Notes under the pieces: model-generated | The model's input: only the letters and a program-made list of their open reading frames with translations | What the model was told of the DNA's origin: nothing | The model's database searches: none | In this document: one piece after another, positions 9,657 to 19,770 of the stretch | Numbering within the stretch: the first letter of the stretch is position 1 | Layout of the letters: each line of letters starts with the position of its first letter | Translations under genes and position numbers: made by a program | From: Candidatus Poribacteria bacterium | Lineage (GTDB): Bacteria; Poribacteria; WGA-4E; WGA-3G | NCBI GenBank assembly: GCA_965242965.1 | Contig: OZ251518.1 | Span: 800,001 to 864,000, forward strand | Reading direction: 5' to 3' | Length of the DNA: 64,000 bases

Positions 9657-10091
9657 ATGAGCCACAAATTAACCCGCAGTCTCCTCCCTTTCTATATGAA
9701 ACTCCCTGTCTTTTGGGCGTTCATCGTTGTGTCGCTGCTGGGGCAGTTGCTCTGGATAGCCATCGTCTCGCAAGACCCGAGGATCGATCTGCGGTGGGCG
9801 ATTTTTGGGTATGCCCTAGGCGTAATCCTCGGCTTTATGCAGGGAGAGTGGAACGCGCGGCTGTGGCAACGTTCCTATCTACAAGTTTTGAAACGGCAGT
9901 TAACCTTCTGGGAAGCGAGAGGCGCGAAAGGCTTAACATGTTATACCTGCCTCGCGCTCGGGCTGCCGATTGTGGCGAGTGTCTTTATCCGTTCGACCGA
10001 GGCGTTGGTGGGCATCCAATCCTACGTTTTCGGCTTCGTCGGCGCGATGAATGTGGCGTTGCTGTTGTGGGTGCGGCAAATTCCGAAGTAG
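9657..10091 (+). CDS. Hypothetical membrane protein (about 4 TM)
   Basis: MSHKLTRS... hydrophobic ORF; the upstream extension in the ORF track is REP-derived. Confidence 0.65.
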   Translation: MSHKLTRSLLPFYMKLPVFWAFIVVSLLGQLLWIAIVSQDPRIDLRWAIFGYALGVILGFMQGEWNARLWQRSYLQVLKRQLTFWEARGAKGLTCYTCLALGLPIVASVFIRSTEALVGIQSYVFGFVGAMNVALLLWVRQIPK

Positions 10092-10098
10092 TGGACAA

Positions 10099-11820
10099 AT
10101 GAACCTTGATAAAAACCAGCGAAAAGCCGTGAACCACCTCGCAGGCCCCGCCATCGTCGTCGCTGGGCCTGGGAGTGGGAAAACCACGGTCATCACCGAA
10201 CGTATCCTGAAACTCATCCACGCGCGCGATGTGCCGTCATCGGACATCCTCGCCATCGCCTTTAATAAGCAAGCGGTTGAAGAGATGGAGAACCGCGTCT
10301 CGGCGAGAAGTGCCGTTCCGGTTACCATCCGCACGCTGCACGCGTTTGGCAAAGATATTGTGATGGCGCACTACAAACGCGCCGGATTTGAAAGCCGCCC
10401 AGAAATTTGGGCTTCGCAGATCGACCAGGTTATTCTGGAAGAGCGGCGACAACTAGCGCGCGAAGCCGCTAATGCCAGCGTTGCTATCTATAAAATCGAA
10501 TGCAAGGCTACTGGGAAGTGTTACATCGGGCAATCGATGAACCCGAAACGCCGGAGAATTGAACACTTCAGTCACTCCTCAAACGATAGGCTTCGGCAAG
10601 CCATCCGTGCTAGGGGGACGAATAGTTTCGATTTTGAGGTGCTGGAGTGGGTTGCCGGGCGCGCTGCAAACCGCCGCGAGGCGCATTGGATTTCGGTTTA
10701 CAGAAACCGTTCCGGTGTATTCAATCGCGCCGATCCGTTGCGCGAACGATATAGCAATCAACTCATGCTGGAGATGTTCTGCCAGCATTTCGGCATCGTT
10801 TATACCGCACATCTTGATAAAGAGCCCGATTTTGAGGATCTTCGCGCCCAGTTTGACACGATAAAAGAGAAGGTAATGCTCGCCAAACGGCAGGTTGAAA
10901 CCGGGCTGTTCGACCCGAGTTCTCTCGCTGACCGGGTCGCCCGCGTCTTCGCCGAAAAATACGAGAACGTCAAAACAGAAGCGAACGCCATTGACTTTGA
11001 GGACATGCTTATCTACGCTGCGAACCTCCTTGAAACTTGCCCTGATTTACGCGAGATTTACGTGGATAAATATCCGTATGTGTTGGTGGATGAGTTTCAG
11101 GATATCGCGCCCACCGATTTCCGTATTATTTCGCTGTTATCTGAGAATCTGTTTGCAGTCGGTGACGATGACCAGGCGATTTACGGCTTCCGCGGCGGCG
11201 ATTCGACGATTATGCAAGCGTTCGCGAACCGCCGCGATGTGAAAAAATATGAAATCACGCGCAATTACCGTTCCACGTCTACCATCGTTGAGCATGCCCG
11301 GGGCTTAATTGAGAGAAACGTGCCGCGCATCAGGAAAAACCTCCGTGCCCAAAATCCGAGACAATTCCAGATAAAATCCGTGGAGACGACACCTGAAACG
11401 CTCGCCGAAGTCCTATTAGCAGAATTGGCAGTGCCGCGGGAGACAGCCATCCTTGCGCGCACCAACTACGAAGTCGGTGAAATCAAACAGATTCTCCGCC
11501 GCTCGGGCATCCAAAGCGCGCACACCGACTTGATCGAGATAACCACTATCCACAAAGCGAAAGGACGTGAATACGAGCGAGTGATTCTCGTCCAAAACAC
11601 GCTTGGGCGGTATTTCCCGCGTCGTGACGATGATATTGAAGAGGAACGGCGCGAACGGCGCGTCTTCTACGTCGCGACGACACGCGCGAAGCGAGAATTA
11701 GTTGTGCTTGGCGGGAATTACCTGTTCATATCGGAGTTTACGGATATCCGTAAAAATGTGGGATATTACCTGCGGCAGTTTGCGTATTGGCGCGCGAGGC
11801 GGAAATTGGAGAAGGGTTAG
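10099..11820 (+). CDS. UvrD/PcrA-like SF1A helicase with an inserted GIY-YIG nuclease domain
   Basis: AGPGSGKT, AFNKQA, TLHAFG, LVDEFQD, VGDDDQAIYGFRG, NYRST, TIHKAKGREY and ERRVFYVATTRAK motifs. Insert about 10480-10730: AIYKIECKATGKCYIGQS..RR..EH..E..N. Confidence 0.9.
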   Translation: MNLDKNQRKAVNHLAGPAIVVAGPGSGKTTVITERILKLIHARDVPSSDILAIAFNKQAVEEMENRVSARSAVPVTIRTLHAFGKDIVMAHYKRAGFESRPEIWASQIDQVILEERRQLAREAANASVAIYKIECKATGKCYIGQSMNPKRRRIEHFSHSSNDRLRQAIRARGTNSFDFEVLEWVAGRAANRREAHWISVYRNRSGVFNRADPLRERYSNQLMLEMFCQHFGIVYTAHLDKEPDFEDLRAQFDTIKEKVMLAKRQVETGLFDPSSLADRVARVFAEKYENVKTEANAIDFEDMLIYAANLLETCPDLREIYVDKYPYVLVDEFQDIAPTDFRIISLLSENLFAVGDDDQAIYGFRGGDSTIMQAFANRRDVKKYEITRNYRSTSTIVEHARGLIERNVPRIRKNLRAQNPRQFQIKSVETTPETLAEVLLAELAVPRETAILARTNYEVGEIKQILRRSGIQSAHTDLIEITTIHKAKGREYERVILVQNTLGRYFPRRDDDIEEERRERRVFYVATTRAKRELVVLGGNYLFISEFTDIRKNVGYYLRQFAYWRARRKLEKG

Positions 11821-12209: not shown

Positions 12210-12360
12210 ATATATTATTGAGAATCAGAGAGTAACGCGCAGTTTTTGCTCGCGTCCAAACCCGTAACTTGATGATGGAGATAGTCAATTTGTAGACAGG
12301 ATGTTTTTCCTGACATTCGGTGCTGCAACTCCGGAGAGTTCATTCGCAGGAGATAAAACG

Positions 12361-13671
12361 ATGAAGATTACGCAATTTACAATGGAAGAGGTCCGCTGTT
12401 TTAGCGAACGCCAGACGCTGGAAATTCGGCCCCTCACGTTCCTAGTCGGCGAGAACAGCACCGGCAAGACGACAGCACTCGCGTGTTTCCACGTGTTGGC
12501 AAACTATTTGCGGCGTGAGGGAGTGGATTTTAATTCGCATCCCTATTCGATGGGCACCTTCAAGGACATCGTCAGGAACAGCCGGAAAAAAGAGAAGGCG
12601 TTTAAGTTGGGTATTGCTTATGAACATGCCAACGAAACTGTTGAGTGGACAGTCGAATTTGTCCAAAAAAATGAACGCATTGAACCTGTAGTGAATTCAA
12701 TCGCGATAAAATTCACTGATGGCGAAATCGTTTTTGAAATCGAAGATAAGCACGAAATGCATTCGTGTTTGACTACCTTTGATGAAAAACGAAATCAGTA
12801 CCGAATAGTTTGTAGCCCTGATTTTTCCACACTGCTGGGATTGGGTGTCTTTTTACGTTTTTTAGAAGCACCCGCTGAGGGTAAAATTGCCCTAGAAAAG
12901 TATTTGGCAGCGCGTGAAGGGGCTACAAGCACCCTATACGGGCCGTGGACAATTTGGGAACCCCTCGGTGTATTTAGCACCGCCCCGATTCGCTCTAAAC
13001 CCGAACGCACCTATGATCCGACACGCGAATTCAGCAATCCCGGAGGTAGCGATGTTCCGATGCAGTTGATGCGAATAGCAGCAACTGAAAAAGACGATTG
13101 GCCGGTACTGAAAGAGTTGTTAGTCGAATTTGGCAAGATTTCTGGCTTGTTTCAGAACATAGAGGTAAAGAATCTTGGAGGTTCCTTGGCTAACCCGTTC
13201 CAATTGAAATTCAAAGTCAGGGGCCCTAACGCAAATCTCATTGATGTCGGCTACGGTGTCAGTCAAATTTTGCCGGTTTTGGTGCATATTTTAAATCCTG
13301 AGGTGCTAAGTAGAGTTCGTCCCATTTATAGCACCTACCCGTTTTTCTTGTTACAGCAACCCGAAGTCCACTTGCATCCCCGAGCGCAGGCGGAGTTCAC
13401 CTCGTTACTCGTTCAGTTGGCAAGCACGAGTAACCGGTCGTTCATCATTGAGACGCACAGCGACTATATGATCGATCGGGCGCGCATCGACATCCGAAAG
13501 GGGCACATTCGGCACGAAGACGTGTCCCTCATCTATTTTGAACCGAAACGGAATACCGTCAAGGTGCATAACATCAGTTTTGATGAGATGGGCAACCTAG
13601 TCGGTGTCCCAGCGCATTATCGGGATTTTTTCCTGAAAGAGAGCGACCGGCTCATGGGTTTTGAGGATTAA
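12361..13671 (+). CDS. ABC-type (AAA_15/AAA_21, DUF3696-like) ATPase of the defence-associated class
   Basis: Walker A GENSTGKT, signature DVGYGVSQILP, Walker B/D-loop LLQQPEVHLHP, H-loop IIETHSD; AGGAG RBS. Confidence 0.88.
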   Translation: MKITQFTMEEVRCFSERQTLEIRPLTFLVGENSTGKTTALACFHVLANYLRREGVDFNSHPYSMGTFKDIVRNSRKKEKAFKLGIAYEHANETVEWTVEFVQKNERIEPVVNSIAIKFTDGEIVFEIEDKHEMHSCLTTFDEKRNQYRIVCSPDFSTLLGLGVFLRFLEAPAEGKIALEKYLAAREGATSTLYGPWTIWEPLGVFSTAPIRSKPERTYDPTREFSNPGGSDVPMQLMRIAATEKDDWPVLKELLVEFGKISGLFQNIEVKNLGGSLANPFQLKFKVRGPNANLIDVGYGVSQILPVLVHILNPEVLSRVRPIYSTYPFFLLQQPEVHLHPRAQAEFTSLLVQLASTSNRSFIIETHSDYMIDRARIDIRKGHIRHEDVSLIYFEPKRNTVKVHNISFDEMGNLVGVPAHYRDFFLKESDRLMGFED

Positions 13672-13674
13672 ACG

Positions 13675-14040
13675 ATGGACATTATTTTAGATGCCGACAC
13701 TTTTCAGCAATTCATGGATGCGGACAACGCTGAGATGAAGTTGATTATGCGGAAGTGGTTATTTAAACGGAACGGCAAGATCGCTTATTATCCTACGGGG
13801 AAATTGGAACCGGGGAGAAAAAGAGGCGGTCCGGAAGATCTGTGGATGAAGGAGCAAATCCGGGCGGGTAGAGTCCGACAAGCCACACGTGATGAGGTGG
13901 AAAAGGCAGAGAAGGAGGCTTGGGAGGCAACGCGCGAATTGGAAAACTCGCCGGAAATCGTGGCGAGTTTAGCTCGGGCAGAGGCAGATATCAAAGCGGG
14001 GCGGCTCAAGAGCTGGAACGATGTTAAACGCGACGTTTGA
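13675..14040 (+). CDS. Chimeric protein: truncated PIN-like N-terminus plus Phd/YefM-like antitoxin C-terminal helix
   Basis: N-terminal MDIILDADTF resembles the first strand of a PIN domain. C-terminal EAWEATRELENSPEIVASLARAEADIKAGR resembles type II antitoxin toxin-binding tails. Overlaps the relE-like gene. Confidence 0.55.
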   Translation: MDIILDADTFQQFMDADNAEMKLIMRKWLFKRNGKIAYYPTGKLEPGRKRGGPEDLWMKEQIRAGRVRQATRDEVEKAEKEAWEATRELENSPEIVASLARAEADIKAGRLKSWNDVKRDV

Positions 14041-14293
14041 AATTCAACTCACGAACGAAGCCGGCACCCATTACGACAGGCTAGATGACAAGATGAAGCG
14101 GCGCGTCAACAAAGCGTTTGATATGTTAATGGAGGATCCTTTTTTCGGAAATAATATCAAGAAGCTTAAGGGAAAGCATACGGGACAATACCGTTACCGT
14201 GTCGGTAGTTATCGGATTATTTATAGCATAGACACCGAACGGCGTAAGTGCACTGTCAGCGGCATCCATCGGCGTAAAAGGGCATACCGCTAG
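14021..14293 (+). CDS. RelE/ParE family type II toxin
   Basis: 90-aa basic protein: L.EDPF..NIKKLKG...YRYRVGSYRIIYSID...V.GIHRRKRAYR. Confidence 0.9.
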   Translation: MLNATFEIQLTNEAGTHYDRLDDKMKRRVNKAFDMLMEDPFFGNNIKKLKGKHTGQYRYRVGSYRIIYSIDTERRKCTVSGIHRRKRAYR

Positions 14294-14312: not shown

Positions 14313-14478
14313 GGCATGTCTGCGGAAGATTTTCCGTTTTTTGGGAATTTCCAGAGAAAAAACTTTGACATGTATCCACATTTAGTGTATAATTAACATC
14401 AACATCATTCGGTTTCCGGTCGCCCCAACACGCGGTTCAAAAGGGGTTTGCACACCTGTCGCATCCCCAACCGATTGA
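14313..14478 (+). promoter_or_regulatory. Promoter (TTGACA 14365, TATAAT 14388) plus conserved putative leader RNA, copy A
   Basis: Perfect consensus with 17-nt spacer; homologous to 15269-15410. Confidence 0.75.
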
Positions 14479-14494
14479 AGAGGAGGTGCATGTT

Positions 14495-14782
14495 GTGAGA
14501 TTATCAGAAGACAAACAGGTCGTCGGGGCTCTCAATCAAATTCTGGAGGAGTATCCTTATCTAGAATATGATGAACAGCGGCCTCAACGCGATAGCAGTT
14601 TTGGCGGCCTCCATATTAAGGTCCGTCCAAAAGCGGAACGTAATGTTCAGGTTATCTGGGACATTCGTGAAAAATTAAAGCGCGCCACTCACCGGGACTA
14701 TTTTTTCACCTACGGCGGCAGCTATTCGGGCGCGGATAATCTTGATGCGGCCTGGACATATTTCACCTTGCGGGAATTCTAG
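14495..14782 (+). CDS. Hypothetical protein (about 95 aa)
   Basis: AGGAGG at 14481 followed by GTG at 14495, downstream of a consensus promoter; no family recognised. Confidence 0.6.
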   Translation: MRLSEDKQVVGALNQILEEYPYLEYDEQRPQRDSSFGGLHIKVRPKAERNVQVIWDIREKLKRATHRDYFFTYGGSYSGADNLDAAWTYFTLREF

Positions 14783-15268: not shown

Positions 15269-15410
15269 GGCACGTCTGCGGAAGGATTCCCGTTTTTAGA
15301 GATTTCCAAAGAAAAAACTTGACAATTCATCACGTTTTGCGTATAATCTACAACATCATTCGGTTTTCGGTTCCCCGCACGCGGCTCAAAAAGGGAACCG
15401 CGCAACCGCC
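15269..15410 (+). promoter_or_regulatory. Promoter (TTGACA 15319, TATAAT 15342) plus conserved putative leader RNA, copy B
   Basis: Perfect consensus with 17-nt spacer; stem cggttccc/gggaaccg encloses a conserved loop. Confidence 0.75.
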
Positions 15411-15549
15411 GCACCCACCGGATAACGAAATCATTGTAATAACTCAAGATAGCAAACAGCTATCTCGTCTTTCACTTCCGAGGCAGATGCCTGGGAGGCA
15501 CCCTATACCCGGCAGAGCACCACAGTTTTGCTCCGCCACATTTACAAAT

Positions 15550-16704
15550 ATGAATGTGATAAAATATCCGAACCAACACTTGCTTTACAAAGCCATCTAC
15601 CAGATTTACTTCCCTGCCATCCGGCCGTTTATGGCCCGGGTCTTAGTGGCACTTCCGAATCGGGAAGGAGAAGTCTCAATCCAAAACGAGGCTGATATAG
15701 ATATTAAGGATGTCCCTCATCTTTTCCGAAAGTTCTGGGCTCCGCCTGAGCATGTCCTGCTCCGCAACCCCGGGGTAGTCTACTTCGAGTCCCTTTTCGA
15801 CCGGAATAAGGACGTTCGGAGCACGATAGGGATAATAGGAGAAGCACGAAATCTCGTCGCGCATCCTGATACCCAAGACATCGATCCGGAATATGCGAGA
15901 GCGCGGCTGTATGACATCGCCGAGGTGCTCGGGTTCATCCACGCCGCCGAAGAAAAACTCGTCGTCCTCACTCTCCGCGATGAACTTATCCGTAACACCA
16001 GCGGACTGCCATTATCGCCAAGCGAGCCGCCACAAATAAGCGTTACGCCTTTTGCTGTGGCTCCGCCGGAGGAATCCCCGGCACCTATCTCTTTGCCTCA
16101 CGTCGCGGAGAGTCGTCAGGACATTGTGCCGATGCACAACGCGAATGAACATTTAGAGTTGGCCCCCGAACTCCCGTTGATTTGGGACACAATTGCCGAT
16201 GCTTATAACAACCTGACACCTGTCCGAGGTGTCGTGAAAAGACTTCGCCCTTTTGGCGCGTTTGTGAACCTCGGTGGGGTTGAGGGGTTGGTTCCCAAGT
16301 CTGAATTGACGTGGAATTGGAAGCGCATTGAGCATCCGTCGAAAGTCGTCTCTGTCGGCGATGAAGTTGAAGCCCTGGTTATCCGGGTTGATCGGGAGAA
16401 GCAGGAAATCTCGTTGAGTATGAAACAAATGACGCGAGATCCGTGGCTAGACGCTGAGGAGAAATACCCGGTCGGCGCAATAGTGCAAGGCACGGTTGTT
16501 AACGCAGTCAGTTATGGCGCGTTCCTTCAGTTAGAAGATGGCGTTGCGGGGCTCATTCACATCACCGAGATGGCTTGGGAACGCGTTAGACATCCTTCTG
16601 AAGTCGTTTCAGTTGGCGAACGGGTTGATGCTGTGGTGCTTGAAATCTCTAATCTAGATAGACGGATTTCGTTTGGACTAAGACAGTTGCAACCGAATCC
16701 CTAG
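15550..16704 (+). CDS. Swt1-like HEPN domain fused to two S1 RNA-binding domains resembling ribosomal protein bS1
   Basis: HEPN Rx4H motif RNLVAH in a helical N-domain; Pro-rich linker; FGAFVNLGGVEGLV and YGAFLQLEDGVAGLIHITEMAW..HPSEVV S1 repeats. Start codon uncertain. Confidence 0.8.
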   Translation: MNVIKYPNQHLLYKAIYQIYFPAIRPFMARVLVALPNREGEVSIQNEADIDIKDVPHLFRKFWAPPEHVLLRNPGVVYFESLFDRNKDVRSTIGIIGEARNLVAHPDTQDIDPEYARARLYDIAEVLGFIHAAEEKLVVLTLRDELIRNTSGLPLSPSEPPQISVTPFAVAPPEESPAPISLPHVAESRQDIVPMHNANEHLELAPELPLIWDTIADAYNNLTPVRGVVKRLRPFGAFVNLGGVEGLVPKSELTWNWKRIEHPSKVVSVGDEVEALVIRVDREKQEISLSMKQMTRDPWLDAEEKYPVGAIVQGTVVNAVSYGAFLQLEDGVAGLIHITEMAWERVRHPSEVVSVGERVDAVVLEISNLDRRISFGLRQLQPNP

Positions 16705-17937: not shown

Positions 17938-17956
17938 GGGAGAACGTCGTGCTATC

Positions 17957-18115
17957 CCAGCGCGGGGGCCTGTCCCCCGCGAATATCGCTATCTCTACCG
18001 TAGCGCGGGGGCCTGTCCCCCGCGAACATCGTGCTACGAAGATCGCAGCGCGGGGGCCTGTCCCCCGCGAGTGTTCGCTATCTCTACCGTAACGCGGGGG
18101 CCTGTCCCCCGCGAA
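17957..18115. repeat. REP cluster (4 x cgcgggggcctgtcccccgcg)
   Basis: Four direct copies between convergent genes. Confidence 0.85.
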
Positions 18116-18151
18116 CATCGCGCTACGAGAAACGCCGTTAAACGCGAACCA

Positions 18152-19321: not shown

Positions 19322-19770
19322 TGAGGGTGTTTCATCTATCAATGCCTTCCCAGTAGGAGAGACCTCCTGGTCTCGATGCAATACCGTAGGTGCTCCCTCC
19401 GGGTCTTGATTTTCCCGTAGCGCGGGGGCCCTCGGATGCCATCCGCGCATCCGAGCGGGTTTCCCCCGCGAGCGTTGGATTGCGCGAGCGATGGCGAGGG
19501 ACAGGCCCTCGCCCTACGGTGAGGGACAGGCGTTTTTTCCCGTAGCGCGGGGGCCCTCGGATGCCATCCGCGCATCCGAGCGGGTTTCCCCCGCGAGCGT
19601 TGGATTGCGCGAGCGATGGCGAGGGACAGGCCCTCGCCCTACGGTGAGGGACAGGCGTTTTTTCTCGTAGCGCGGGGGCCCTCGCCTTACGACGAAGGGG
19701 ACCTTCTGCCGCCGCGGTCCCGGTAGGCGCGCCTCCCTAATGCATCGAGACCAGGAGGTCTCTCCTACGG
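19322..19770. repeat. MITE TIR plus REP cluster with a 125-bp tandem duplication
   Basis: tgagggtgtttcat at 19322; duplicated units at about 19414 and 19539. Confidence 0.8.

Follow-up and report, generated by a model that had tools for sequence, protein, structure and literature searches.

The HEPN-S1 Gene and Its Domain Layout

The stretch of DNA analyzed here (hereafter, the window) comprises 64,000 nucleotides from a Candidatus Poribacteria bacterium (contig OZ251518.1, positions 800,001 to 864,000, assembly GCA_965242965.1; 5.7 Mb in 2 contigs) and contains, on the plus strand at 15550..16704, an uninterrupted frame of 384 amino acids plus stop, named HEPN-S1, which joins a Swt1-like HEPN domain to two S1 domains evidently derived from ribosomal protein bS1. 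The HEPN domain spans residues 1-152 (15550..16005) and carries the Rx4H motif as RNLVAH at residues 100-105 (15847-15864). It is followed by a Pro-rich linker that is predicted to be disordered (residues 153-209, 16006..16176), by S1a, a hybrid S1 domain (residues 210-300, 16177..16449), and by S1b, which comes from bS1 repeat 4 and ends at the repeat 4/5 linker (residues 301-384, 16450..16701). A first-pass annotation of the window, made from the letters alone, had singled out RNLVAH, the Pro-rich stretch (residues ~153-209), the linker SLSMKQMTRDPW..EEKYPVG and the sequence GLRQLQPNP, and each of them is found in the translation, SLSMKQMTRDPW..EEKYPVG lying between both S1 repeats and GLRQLQPNP forming the C-terminus of the protein. 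Translation probably begins with the ATG at 15550, because the N-termini of relatives read MNEIKYPNQ, MIKYPNQ or MTIIKYPNQ; an alternative longer frame opening with TTG (15319 on) overlaps a promoter-like site.

The Pfam S1 family (PF00575) matches the protein with an E-value of 7.6e-41 in two stretches (residues ~225-292 and ~305-380), and the assignment of two S1 domains is far above chance. In the AlphaFold2 (AF2) model of the full-length protein, S1a and S1b each form a five-stranded barrel with a confident OB fold (predicted local distance difference test, pLDDT, >90), and the pLDDT falls below 50 at residues 155-176 and 178-208. The linker is disordered and the predicted template modelling score (pTM) of the whole model is 0.50, so no fixed orientation of the HEPN part relative to the S1 part is expected; the length of the linker also varies among relatives. 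Parts of the window are present in 15 of 18 listed sequencing runs, sponge metagenomes among them, and none of these runs is recorded as RNA.

The HEPN Domain

The first-pass annotation took the N-terminal domain for an HEPN of the Swt1-like type whose Rx4H motif is intact. This identification is borne out by the invariant Arg and His, by matches of relatives to PF18731 and by a profile-profile match, and the structural matches are suggestive of it. In the alignment of relatives, no columns other than R100 and H105 are invariant (87/87), and N101 is at least 90% conserved in the close set. A Pfam scan of the window protein (P0001) gave no match for the N-terminal domain even at E<=1; among its relatives, PF18731 (HEPN_Swt1) was matched at E<=1e-3 by 40 of the 54 that were scanned, 20 of the 54 scoring above the curated cut-off of 27.5 bits. 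When the profile of nine S1-fused proteins was compared by hhalign with that of 13 PF18731-positive proteins, all of which individually exceed the family cut-off, a probability of 99.9% and an E-value of 3e-33 over 139 columns were obtained. A HMMER search with residues 1-155 against 1.84 billion representatives recovered at least 150 relatives at E<=1e-3, 31 of them at <=1e-10.

The AF2 model of this domain is all-helical, with six helices (pLDDT 91.6). Its best VIA structural matches were AF_0298 (2hsb; Z 7.9, root mean square deviation 3.2, 99 residues aligned) and the C-terminal domain of yeast Swt1 (4pqz; Z 7.9, root mean square deviation 3.9, 126 of 136 residues aligned). In helical bundles a Z under ~13 may reflect nothing more than a frequent arrangement of helices, and such values are only suggestive. 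Further matches were AbiF (8vz6, Z 7.3), Csm6 (4rgp), sacsin, the HEPN-MNT toxins 7ae2 and 8xdj (Z ~6) and Cas13. A Foldseek search of the PDB with the HEPN model found nothing at E<=1e-3, with 4pqz as second match (TM-scores 0.46/0.51, E=1), and the profile of the N-terminal domain met only designed helical proteins among the sequences of solved structures, at E>=0.027. Since Z values of this size are only suggestive, membership in the HEPN superfamily was rested on sequence evidence, and through profile-profile comparison and transitive homology HEPN-S1 is assigned to the Swt1-like HEPN family. A homodimer prediction with two copies of residues 1-160 and an 87-row alignment scored 0.14 and 0.26 against a mark of 0.42 and counts neither way.

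In a tree of 108 N-terminal domains, nine proteins fused to S1, IF2 or other parts, the window protein included, form a clade (Shimodaira-Hasegawa-like approximate likelihood ratio test, SH-aLRT, 98), which nests within a 35-row clade (96) together with the N-terminal domains of Poribacteria HmaC (DUF499) ATPases of ~1100 amino acids, a protein type whose member P0135 matches the PADLOC HmaC model at 3e-226. The window HEPN is 42-53% identical to these N-terminal domains, and its nearest relatives are thus placed in HmaC-type defence ATPases. A second Swt1-like HEPN of the same genome (G000:C1:229330-230004, minus strand, locus L006), 34-38% identical to that of the window, likewise stands at the N-terminal end of an HmaC/DUF499 ATPase encoded by a frame of 1177 amino acids (PADLOC HmaC, 5.5e-154). 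Proteins of the Ava_2192/HmaC type (PF18731) have the family and the RNxxxH motif in common with HEPN-S1, which differs from them in lacking the AAA+ ATPase and the methylase or helicase operon partners and in having S1 domains instead. Bacterial Swt1-like HEPNs of the Ava_2192 type, found in systems resembling restriction-modification, are classed as 'Active' and defence-linked in the main text of the survey by Anantharaman et al. 2013 (PMC3710099), a text that does not mention any S1 fusion (0 occurrences of 'S1 domain'). In P0180 and P0167 the HEPNs lie far from the main clade, yet the S1 blocks group with the other HEPN-linked blocks, which indicates that two distinct Swt1-HEPN lineages have been joined to one S1 lineage.

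The S1 Domains and Their Descent from bS1

The S1 repeats had been described in the first-pass annotation as apparently taken from bS1, and a phylogeny against the genome's own rpsA had been proposed; the trees and alignments uphold that origin. The repeats match rpsA repeats 3-4, end at the repeat 4/5 linker, fall with bS1 and apart from S1 proteins of other kinds, and lie inside the family-level radiation of Poribacteria rpsA. The best NCBIfam models for HEPN-S1 are all bS1 models, aligned at model positions ~190-360, and TIGR00717 gives 192.3 bits against a cut-off of 577 bits, covering model positions 189-349 only. By this measure HEPN-S1 is a bS1 derivative and itself no bS1. It has homologous repeats 3-4 and inter-repeat linkers in common with bS1 (rpsA; TIGR00717); in contrast to bS1, it holds only two repeats, the first of them a hybrid, and lacks repeats 1-2, by which bS1 docks on the ribosome. 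The genuine rpsA (841 amino acids) is intact elsewhere in the genome (G000:C1:3114344-3115882, 601 bits).

Residues 227-300 of S1a align to the third repeat of the genome's own rpsA (433-504), and S1b to the fourth. The preceding residues 210-226 (LIWDTIADAYNNLTPVRG) align best to the helix and first strand before bS1 repeat 2, with scores of 60 and 54 for helicase-B proteins (described below) and of 39 for positions 329-345 of the resident rpsA. S1a is accordingly read as a hybrid of repeats 2 and 3, with helix and first strand from the repeat 1/2 junction and body from repeat 3, which implies the loss of one repeat unit through an in-register deletion and, therefore, descent from a multi-repeat array of the bS1 type and not from a generic S1 domain.

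Over repeats 3-4, the S1 block is 57% identical to the resident rpsA, up to 62% identical to rpsA of other genera of the family, 49-55% to that of other families of the order and 42-55% to that of other phyla; identity thus drops with distance, yet the resident gene is not the top match. A first maximum likelihood tree was built from 70 rows and 165 columns, comprising 7 HEPN-linked blocks, 24 from Poribacteria and 39 other bS1 blocks (every third of 117 matches in BLAST order), P0002 (a near-duplicate) and P0134 (a short alignment) being left out. In this tree, family-f1 rpsA together with the helicase-linked and HEPN-linked blocks are separated from all other bS1 with support of 99/99, and the HEPN-linked plus helicase-linked blocks from the remainder with 98/90. 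P0052 (556 amino acids) and P0007 (560 amino acids), of bS1 length, fell on a long branch within the HEPN-linked group, a position treated as long-branch attraction; this placement of their best-matching two-repeat block may be an artefact or reflect an out-of-register block. Both were dropped from a second tree (76 rows, quick search), in which all 10 HEPN-linked blocks stand on one side of a branch (SH-aLRT 91), the 7 helicase-linked blocks stand on one side of another (88), and a 29-row set that includes family-f1 rpsA is supported at 98. The sister group of the HEPN-linked S1 blocks is, in these trees, the S1 arrays of helicase B, a giant UvrD-GIY-YIG-(GrpE) protein encoded at the same locus in other genera. 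The HEPN-linked clade is as deep as the radiation of the family, and the S1 block, which goes with rpsA repeats 3-4 of its own family, is best described as an old, fast-evolving paralogue and no fresh copy of the resident rpsA.

The same blocks were compared with 44 columns that are at least 95% invariant in 59 genuine bS1 blocks (P0167 and a gappy row from G098 were left out). The window S1 block keeps 33 of the 44 positions, and 9 of the 11 changes lie in S1a. Two derived states unite it with the helicase-linked blocks: Asp to Glu at 252, found in 9/9 HEPN-linked and 6/6 helicase-linked blocks, and Gly to Ser at 290, found in 8/9 HEPN-linked blocks (the ninth having Thr) and in 6/6 helicase-linked ones. 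In S1b, Y322 (Y or F), G323, F325 and H337 are retained in 9/9 HEPN-linked blocks, and D370, R371 and R372 are invariant in 9/9 close relatives. S1a keeps F238; the bS1-invariant Asp at 240 is Asn and the repeat-3 His is Pro 249. The conserved aromatic and His residues presumably make up the RNA-binding face of the S1 fold, as their identities in the literature on PNPase and bS1 indicate. The C-termini of 9/9 aligned relatives read GL[RK]QLQ[PL][NR][PS], and all of them stop at one and the same position within the repeat 4/5 linker.

Selection and Distribution

The orthologue of HEPN-S1 in another genome of the genus (G002) is syntenic and 78% identical. Across the pair, synonymous sites have diverged with a dS of ~0.5, and the ratio of non-synonymous to synonymous substitution rates (dN/dS) is 0.24 overall, with 0.18 for the HEPN domain, 0.33 for the linker, 0.16 for S1a and 0.41 for S1b, values that place HEPN-S1 under purifying selection. 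The flanking core genes have dN/dS ratios of 0.055-0.10, and HEPN-S1 evolves faster.

The HEPN-S1 architecture is represented by about 88 sequences in 9 database clusters, several of them on contigs of 5-6 Mb. Of the 176 species genomes of the phylum, 2 carry full-length HEPN-S1, which in a set of 31 close genomes is likewise present in 2, and the HEPN subfamily of the window (>55% identity) occurs in 3/176 (G000, which is the window genome, G002 and G116, a genome of another genus); the Swt1-like HEPN domain as such is common, being present in 90/176 phylum genomes and in 78/111 of the window family. Pattern searches gave 230 matches among JGI metagenome contigs and 23 among IMG/VR viral contigs, none of which was confirmed. 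In GenBank phages and PLSDB plasmids searched by tblastn, no record covered at least 80% of the query, and among the matches listed only the S1 part aligns, mostly to sequences annotated as rpsA. PADLOC-DB v2 contains 0 families that match HEPN-S1 (P0001) at E<=1, and only its neighbours match.

A lineage-specific housekeeping RNase, in which the S1 block would guide mRNA turnover or quality control with no part in conflict, could be expected to be under purifying selection and to be chromosomal and syntenic in two species, as HEPN-S1 is, next to ordinary core neighbours (a major facilitator superfamily (MFS) transporter, an outer-membrane protein and a PhyH protein). Enzymes of RNA decay such as RNase E/G, PNPase and RNase II/R commonly bind their substrates through S1 domains, and eukaryotic Swt1 offers a further parallel. 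This explanation, an analogy with those enzymes, is nonetheless unlikely given the very patchy distribution (2/31 close genomes with the full-length gene, 3/176 with the subfamily, and a gene split into two open reading frames (ORFs) in G116), a locus whose content varies by genus and includes transposases, methylases and toxin genes, and the position of the nearest HEPN relatives in Hma-type defence ATPases.

Fragments of Other Housekeeping Proteins at the Same Locus

A survey of Swt1-HEPN fusions to other translation-related domains, suggested in the first-pass annotation, led to proteins in which an N-terminal fragment of IF2 is joined to the HEPN, with or without S1. In G116 the gene order is helicase A, an IF2_N-HEPN protein of 350 amino acids (L094 9787-10839, minus strand), a separate ORF of 154 amino acids with two S1 domains (L094 9251-9715, minus strand) and an MFS gene, the HEPN and S1 parts being split. 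P0124 and P0134 also belong to the proteins with this IF2 fusion, P0134 being an unsplit IF2_N-HEPN-S1x2 protein of 536 amino acids. The IF2 piece corresponds to the first ~175 residues of IF2, with two IF2_N domains and, at its end, a degenerate GHVDxGKT that is a remnant of the P-loop of the G domain, and it is 74% and 44% identical to infB of the same genome.

The gene that stands first in this order, helicase A, encodes in the window a UvrD protein of 589 amino acids with an inserted GIY-YIG domain (Pfam) that matches a GajB-like PADLOC model at 2.7e-65 (10051..11820, plus strand), and it forms the conserved left border of the variable locus. A segment of it is present in 109/176 phylum genomes and in 107/111 of the family; in G000, G002 and G116 helicase A precedes the HEPN/S1 genes, and in G004 and G006 it precedes helicase B. 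The window protein was considered as a truncated helicase B and rejected as such, being the orthologue of the short helicase A and ~70% identical to the short copies that stand beside helicase B in G004 and G006. A functional tie between helicase A and HEPN-S1 is suggested by linkage, which is shown in G000, G002 and G116.

Helicase B, which adjoins the short helicase A, comprises in G004 a protein of 1675 amino acids with UvrD and GIY-YIG, GrpE, bS1 repeats 1-4 and a low-complexity tail (L115 3608-8635, minus strand), and in G006 one of 1233 amino acids with the same parts without GrpE (L116 2927-6628, minus strand). Across the 15 proteins of this kind that were examined (988-1675 amino acids; also at loci L121-L130), GrpE is present in 11/15 and S1 repeats in 7/15, and the GrpE part shares 48-49% identity with the resident grpE of the genomes. 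As a DNA helicase-nuclease with copies of two housekeeping proteins, helicase B may be perhaps more striking than HEPN-S1 itself. In G117, the ~550 C-terminal residues of a helicase B of 1521 amino acids with GrpE (L128 353-4918, minus strand) have no Pfam match at E<=1e-6, and this C-terminus may hold another captured fragment.

In P0123 (475 amino acids, 8 cluster members), the same HEPN and linker run up to the LIWNEIS junction and are followed by a C-terminal region of 270 residues. This tail matched no Pfam family and nothing in the window genome (with the whole protein as query), and gave no usable ESM-Atlas match; the S1 block appears to have been replaced at the same junction by another module. 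Taken together, these proteins indicate that fragments of three housekeeping proteins (bS1, IF2 and GrpE) have been captured at one locus in different genera.

Such a series recalls the integrated decoys of plant nucleotide-binding leucine-rich repeat (NLR) receptors, in which a duplicated fragment of a host protein is likewise carried by an immune executor and several fragments occur at one fast-changing locus; HEPN-S1, unlike those receptors, has no NLR/STAND module, and the resemblance is one of logic only. On a decoy or guard reading, the bS1 module (or the IF2 fragment in relatives) would mimic a host factor targeted by phages, and its engagement would release or dimerise the HEPN domain and stop translation, an explanation that we hold to be rather doubtful. 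Its wider form, to which we give equally little credence, would make the locus after helicase A a decoy hot spot, with fragments of bS1, IF2 and GrpE wired to an HEPN RNase or to a helicase-nuclease. Both forms draw on the capture of fragments of three housekeeping proteins at one fast-changing locus in different genera, on the nature of IF2_N and GrpE, which are not known as RNA-binding modules, so that substrate tethering accounts for neither, and on the fact that the sensor-like part is the variable part, as in immune receptors; bS1, moreover, is exploited by Qbeta replicase and by T4 RegB. The S1 block is, however, a poor mimic, with 57% identity to repeats 3-4 of the resident rpsA, long branches and 11 of 44 invariant positions changed, and it does not track the rpsA of each host, because all HEPN-linked S1 blocks form one clade. 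Repeats 1-2, through which bS1 contacts the ribosome and Qbeta replicase, are missing from it, and we know of no phage partner of the HEPN-S1 module. Among the titles of open-access literature on integrated decoys and anti-phage defence, no such bacterial system was found.

If the fragments were indeed baits, this would be the first case found in the open-access literature of plant-style integrated decoys in bacterial immunity, and HEPN-S1 would combine bait and trigger in one protein, detecting a phage factor aimed at bS1 and responding by cleaving RNA.

A different account of the same locus starts from position: the place that the S1 block occupies in the window, immediately ahead of the shared MFS gene, is taken in G004 and G006 by the C-terminal S1 array of helicase B. 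HEPN-S1 could on that basis be a functionless by-product, a decaying leftover of the rearrangements that destroyed a helicase-B-S1 gene, and the split gene of G116 and the partly degenerate S1a would fit such a decay. We consider this highly improbable, since the frame is intact in about 88 sequences of 9 clusters, dN/dS lies between 0.16 and 0.41 in every domain, the catalytic Arg and His and the core residues of S1b are invariant, the gene has a consensus promoter of its own that is conserved in G002, and the HEPN-linked S1 clade is as old as the family radiation.

A Predicted S1-Tethered Endoribonuclease

The reading that we favour, to which we give about an even chance, is that HEPN-S1 is an S1-tethered endoribonuclease that acts on mRNA as an effector in conflict or defence, its activity being predicted. 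The direct results that bear on it show which domains are present, that their catalytic and putative RNA-binding residues are conserved, that the S1 module descends from bS1, that the gene is under purifying selection and has a consensus promoter of its own, and that it lies in a variable island; that the protein cleaves and binds RNA, forms dimers, serves in defence and is kept in check is what we infer. The Swt1-like HEPN, with its RNxxxH motif intact, is predicted to be catalytically competent and would cut RNA. It would be tethered by a flexible linker of ~55 residues to the two-domain S1 module taken from bS1, which would bind RNA in single-stranded form. Its ligands would most likely be mRNA leaders, to which the middle repeats of bS1 naturally bind, and the module would thereby raise the local concentration of substrate and select the targets. 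The middle repeats are the mRNA-binding part of bS1, and the data fit an mRNA-targeted RNase, the putative RNA-binding residues of S1b being retained. The flexible linker suits a bind-and-cut arrangement.

The HEPN domain would probably be dimeric, by analogy with other HEPN RNases, which according to the available text of one report generally dimerise to form the active site (bioRxiv 10.64898/2026.09.30.754977). The protein would probably act through translation shut-off or abortive infection and not in housekeeping, and its patchy distribution, its fast evolution, its defence-type neighbours and the HmaC ancestry of its HEPN point to a role in conflict.

Several observations weigh against the proposal of an S1-tethered RNase. 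Position 240 is altered from Asp in 8/9 HEPN-linked blocks and position 249 is Pro in place of His in the genus of the window, so that S1a has lost bS1-invariant residues and only one of the two S1 domains resembles a canonical RNA binder. IF2_N and GrpE are, to our knowledge, no RNA binders, and RNA tethering thus leaves unexplained the IF2-HEPN proteins and the GrpE part and S1 repeats 1-2 of helicase B. A free HEPN RNase normally needs an inhibitor, and neither an MNT protein nor any other recognisable antitoxin was found among the neighbours with Pfam and PADLOC. PADLOC has no model for HEPN-S1, which leaves a defence role with no homology precedent beyond the HEPN family.

Known systems resemble the protein in part. 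The HEPN-MNT pairs of types II/VII include a small toxin, an HEPN RNase that has the Rx4H motif in common with the putative RNase HEPN-S1; HEPN-S1 differs in that no MNT nucleotidyltransferase lies nearby, that its HEPN belongs to another family and that it has an additional module, predicted to bind RNA. S1 domains are described as RNA binders in defence proteins in the available texts on the TERNS3 effectors, which combine OST-HTH and S1 (PMC8195603), and on Tiamat-like type VI-A systems (bioRxiv 10.64898/2026.09.30.754977). In both, as far as those texts go, a bS1-type S1 is carried by a conflict protein, as here, with catalytic partners that differ (no HEPN) and with S1 domains whose origin, unlike that of HEPN-S1, has not been traced to the host rpsA. 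This fusion of an HEPN with S1 domains is not described in the open-access titles and texts on HEPN, S1 domains and defence that were available, and no description of a Swt1-HEPN joined to S1 was found in the open-access literature, where the supplementary architecture tables of the 2013 survey could list one.

Among toxins and immune effectors, HEPN RNases form one of the major classes, and how they are targeted and switched on is known for few of them. In HEPN-S1 the module presumed to target or to sense has an ancestry that can be followed, at the level of single residues, back to the bS1 of the cell itself, and the sister genes with pieces of IF2 and GrpE provide, within one lineage, a natural series of chimeras between an executor and host fragments. 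If these fragments serve only to tether RNA, they would offer a clean example of a defence nuclease that gains specificity from a borrowed housekeeping module. The gene also enlarges the picture in which sponge symbionts harbour a wealth of unusual genes for defence.

Promoter and Leader

A sigma-70-type promoter, TTGACA-17 nt-TATAAT, lies at 15319..15347 on the plus strand and agrees with the consensus at 12/12 positions, both hexamers being conserved in G002; it was called by its match to the consensus, which is no proof of function. The region has 4 promoter-like sites, against 2.2 +/- 1.4 in shuffled sequences, and none of the others is perfect. Directly after the promoter comes a 5' leader of ~200 nucleotides (15348..15549, plus strand), the first ~110 of which are conserved with G002 and which contains, on the same strand, a hairpin GGTTCCC(17 nt)GGGAACC (15369-15375 / 15393-15399). 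The minimum free energy of the leader RNA fold is -57.2 kcal/mol, with z=-3.2 relative to shuffles. The promoter and the start of the leader (15300-15400) are duplicated with 77% identity at 14347-14446, upstream of the gene orf98, and weaker partial copies of the element occur at three other places of the genome. Rfam gave no match at E<=1 between 14300 and 16900. The leader would be a regulatory 5' untranslated region (5'UTR) or an antitoxin-like RNA.

The second of these possibilities would make HEPN-S1 similar to a type III toxin-antitoxin (TA) system of the AbiD/AbiF kind, in which the leader RNA would occupy the HEPN site and silence the RNase until infection or stress, a regulatory arrangement that is compatible with a tethered RNase. 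According to the available text of PMC13064643, a non-coding RNA encoded upstream neutralises AbiF, an HEPN that belongs to the sister group Abi2. AbiD and AbiF are likewise single HEPN proteins, of an Abi2 group that neighbours Swt1 in the main text of the 2013 survey (PMC3710099), with a conserved upstream non-coding region and a strong promoter. They differ in having no S1 domains and are related to HEPN-S1 in sequence at the superfamily level only, and the leader of HEPN-S1 is partly shared with orf98. The perfect promoter 200 nucleotides upstream, the conservation of the first ~110 nucleotides of the leader despite a dS of ~0.5, the stability of its fold (z=-3.2) and the presence of the AbiF-ncRNA structure 8vz6 (Z 7.3) among the structural matches speak for such a system. 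The leader, however, has no tandem repeats and no Rfam match, its exact motif is found in no other examined locus, that of G116 included, and it is known from two sequences. As the promoter and leader start also stand upstream of the unrelated orf98, a shared regulatory 5'UTR fits better than a dedicated antitoxin, and we regard silencing by the leader as quite unlikely.

Neighbouring Genes

The region from 4 to 27 kb of the window is syntenic with G002, and in both genomes the order is helicase A, an ATPase, a 121-aa ORF, a ParE/RelE-type toxin gene, orf98, a doubtful minus-strand ORF (dN/dS 0.66) and HEPN-S1. The ATPase, of the AAA_15/AAA_21 type in Pfam (12301-13671, plus strand), matches NsnB at 3.9e-44 in PADLOC, as well as PDC-M55A and AriA-like models. 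The 121-aa ORF (13675-14040, plus strand) has no known family and overlaps the ParE/RelE-type toxin gene identified by Pfam (14021-14293, plus strand). This cassette (12301..14293), present and syntenic in G002 and missing at the corresponding locus of G004, G006 and G116, is possibly a small defence or TA cassette.

The product of orf98 (14486-14782) matches no Pfam or PADLOC family. Its homologues are proteins of ~100 amino acids or form the C-terminal part of frames of ~200-230 amino acids, and they constitute a multi-copy family present in 75/176 phylum genomes, all of the window family. It was considered as a dedicated partner of HEPN-S1 and rejected, since a multi-copy family of that spread extends far beyond the distribution of HEPN-S1.

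The MFS transporter, the outer-membrane protein and the PhyH dioxygenase form the right border of the variable locus. Intergenic repeats stand on both sides of the outer-membrane-protein gene, at 17952-18120 and 19410-19684: four tandem units of ~44 nucleotides with the palindrome GCGCGGGGGCCTGTCCCCCGCG, and two exact tandem copies of 125 nucleotides with an incomplete third copy. One set is in part complementary to the other, and they have the look of repetitive extragenic palindromic (REP-type) elements.

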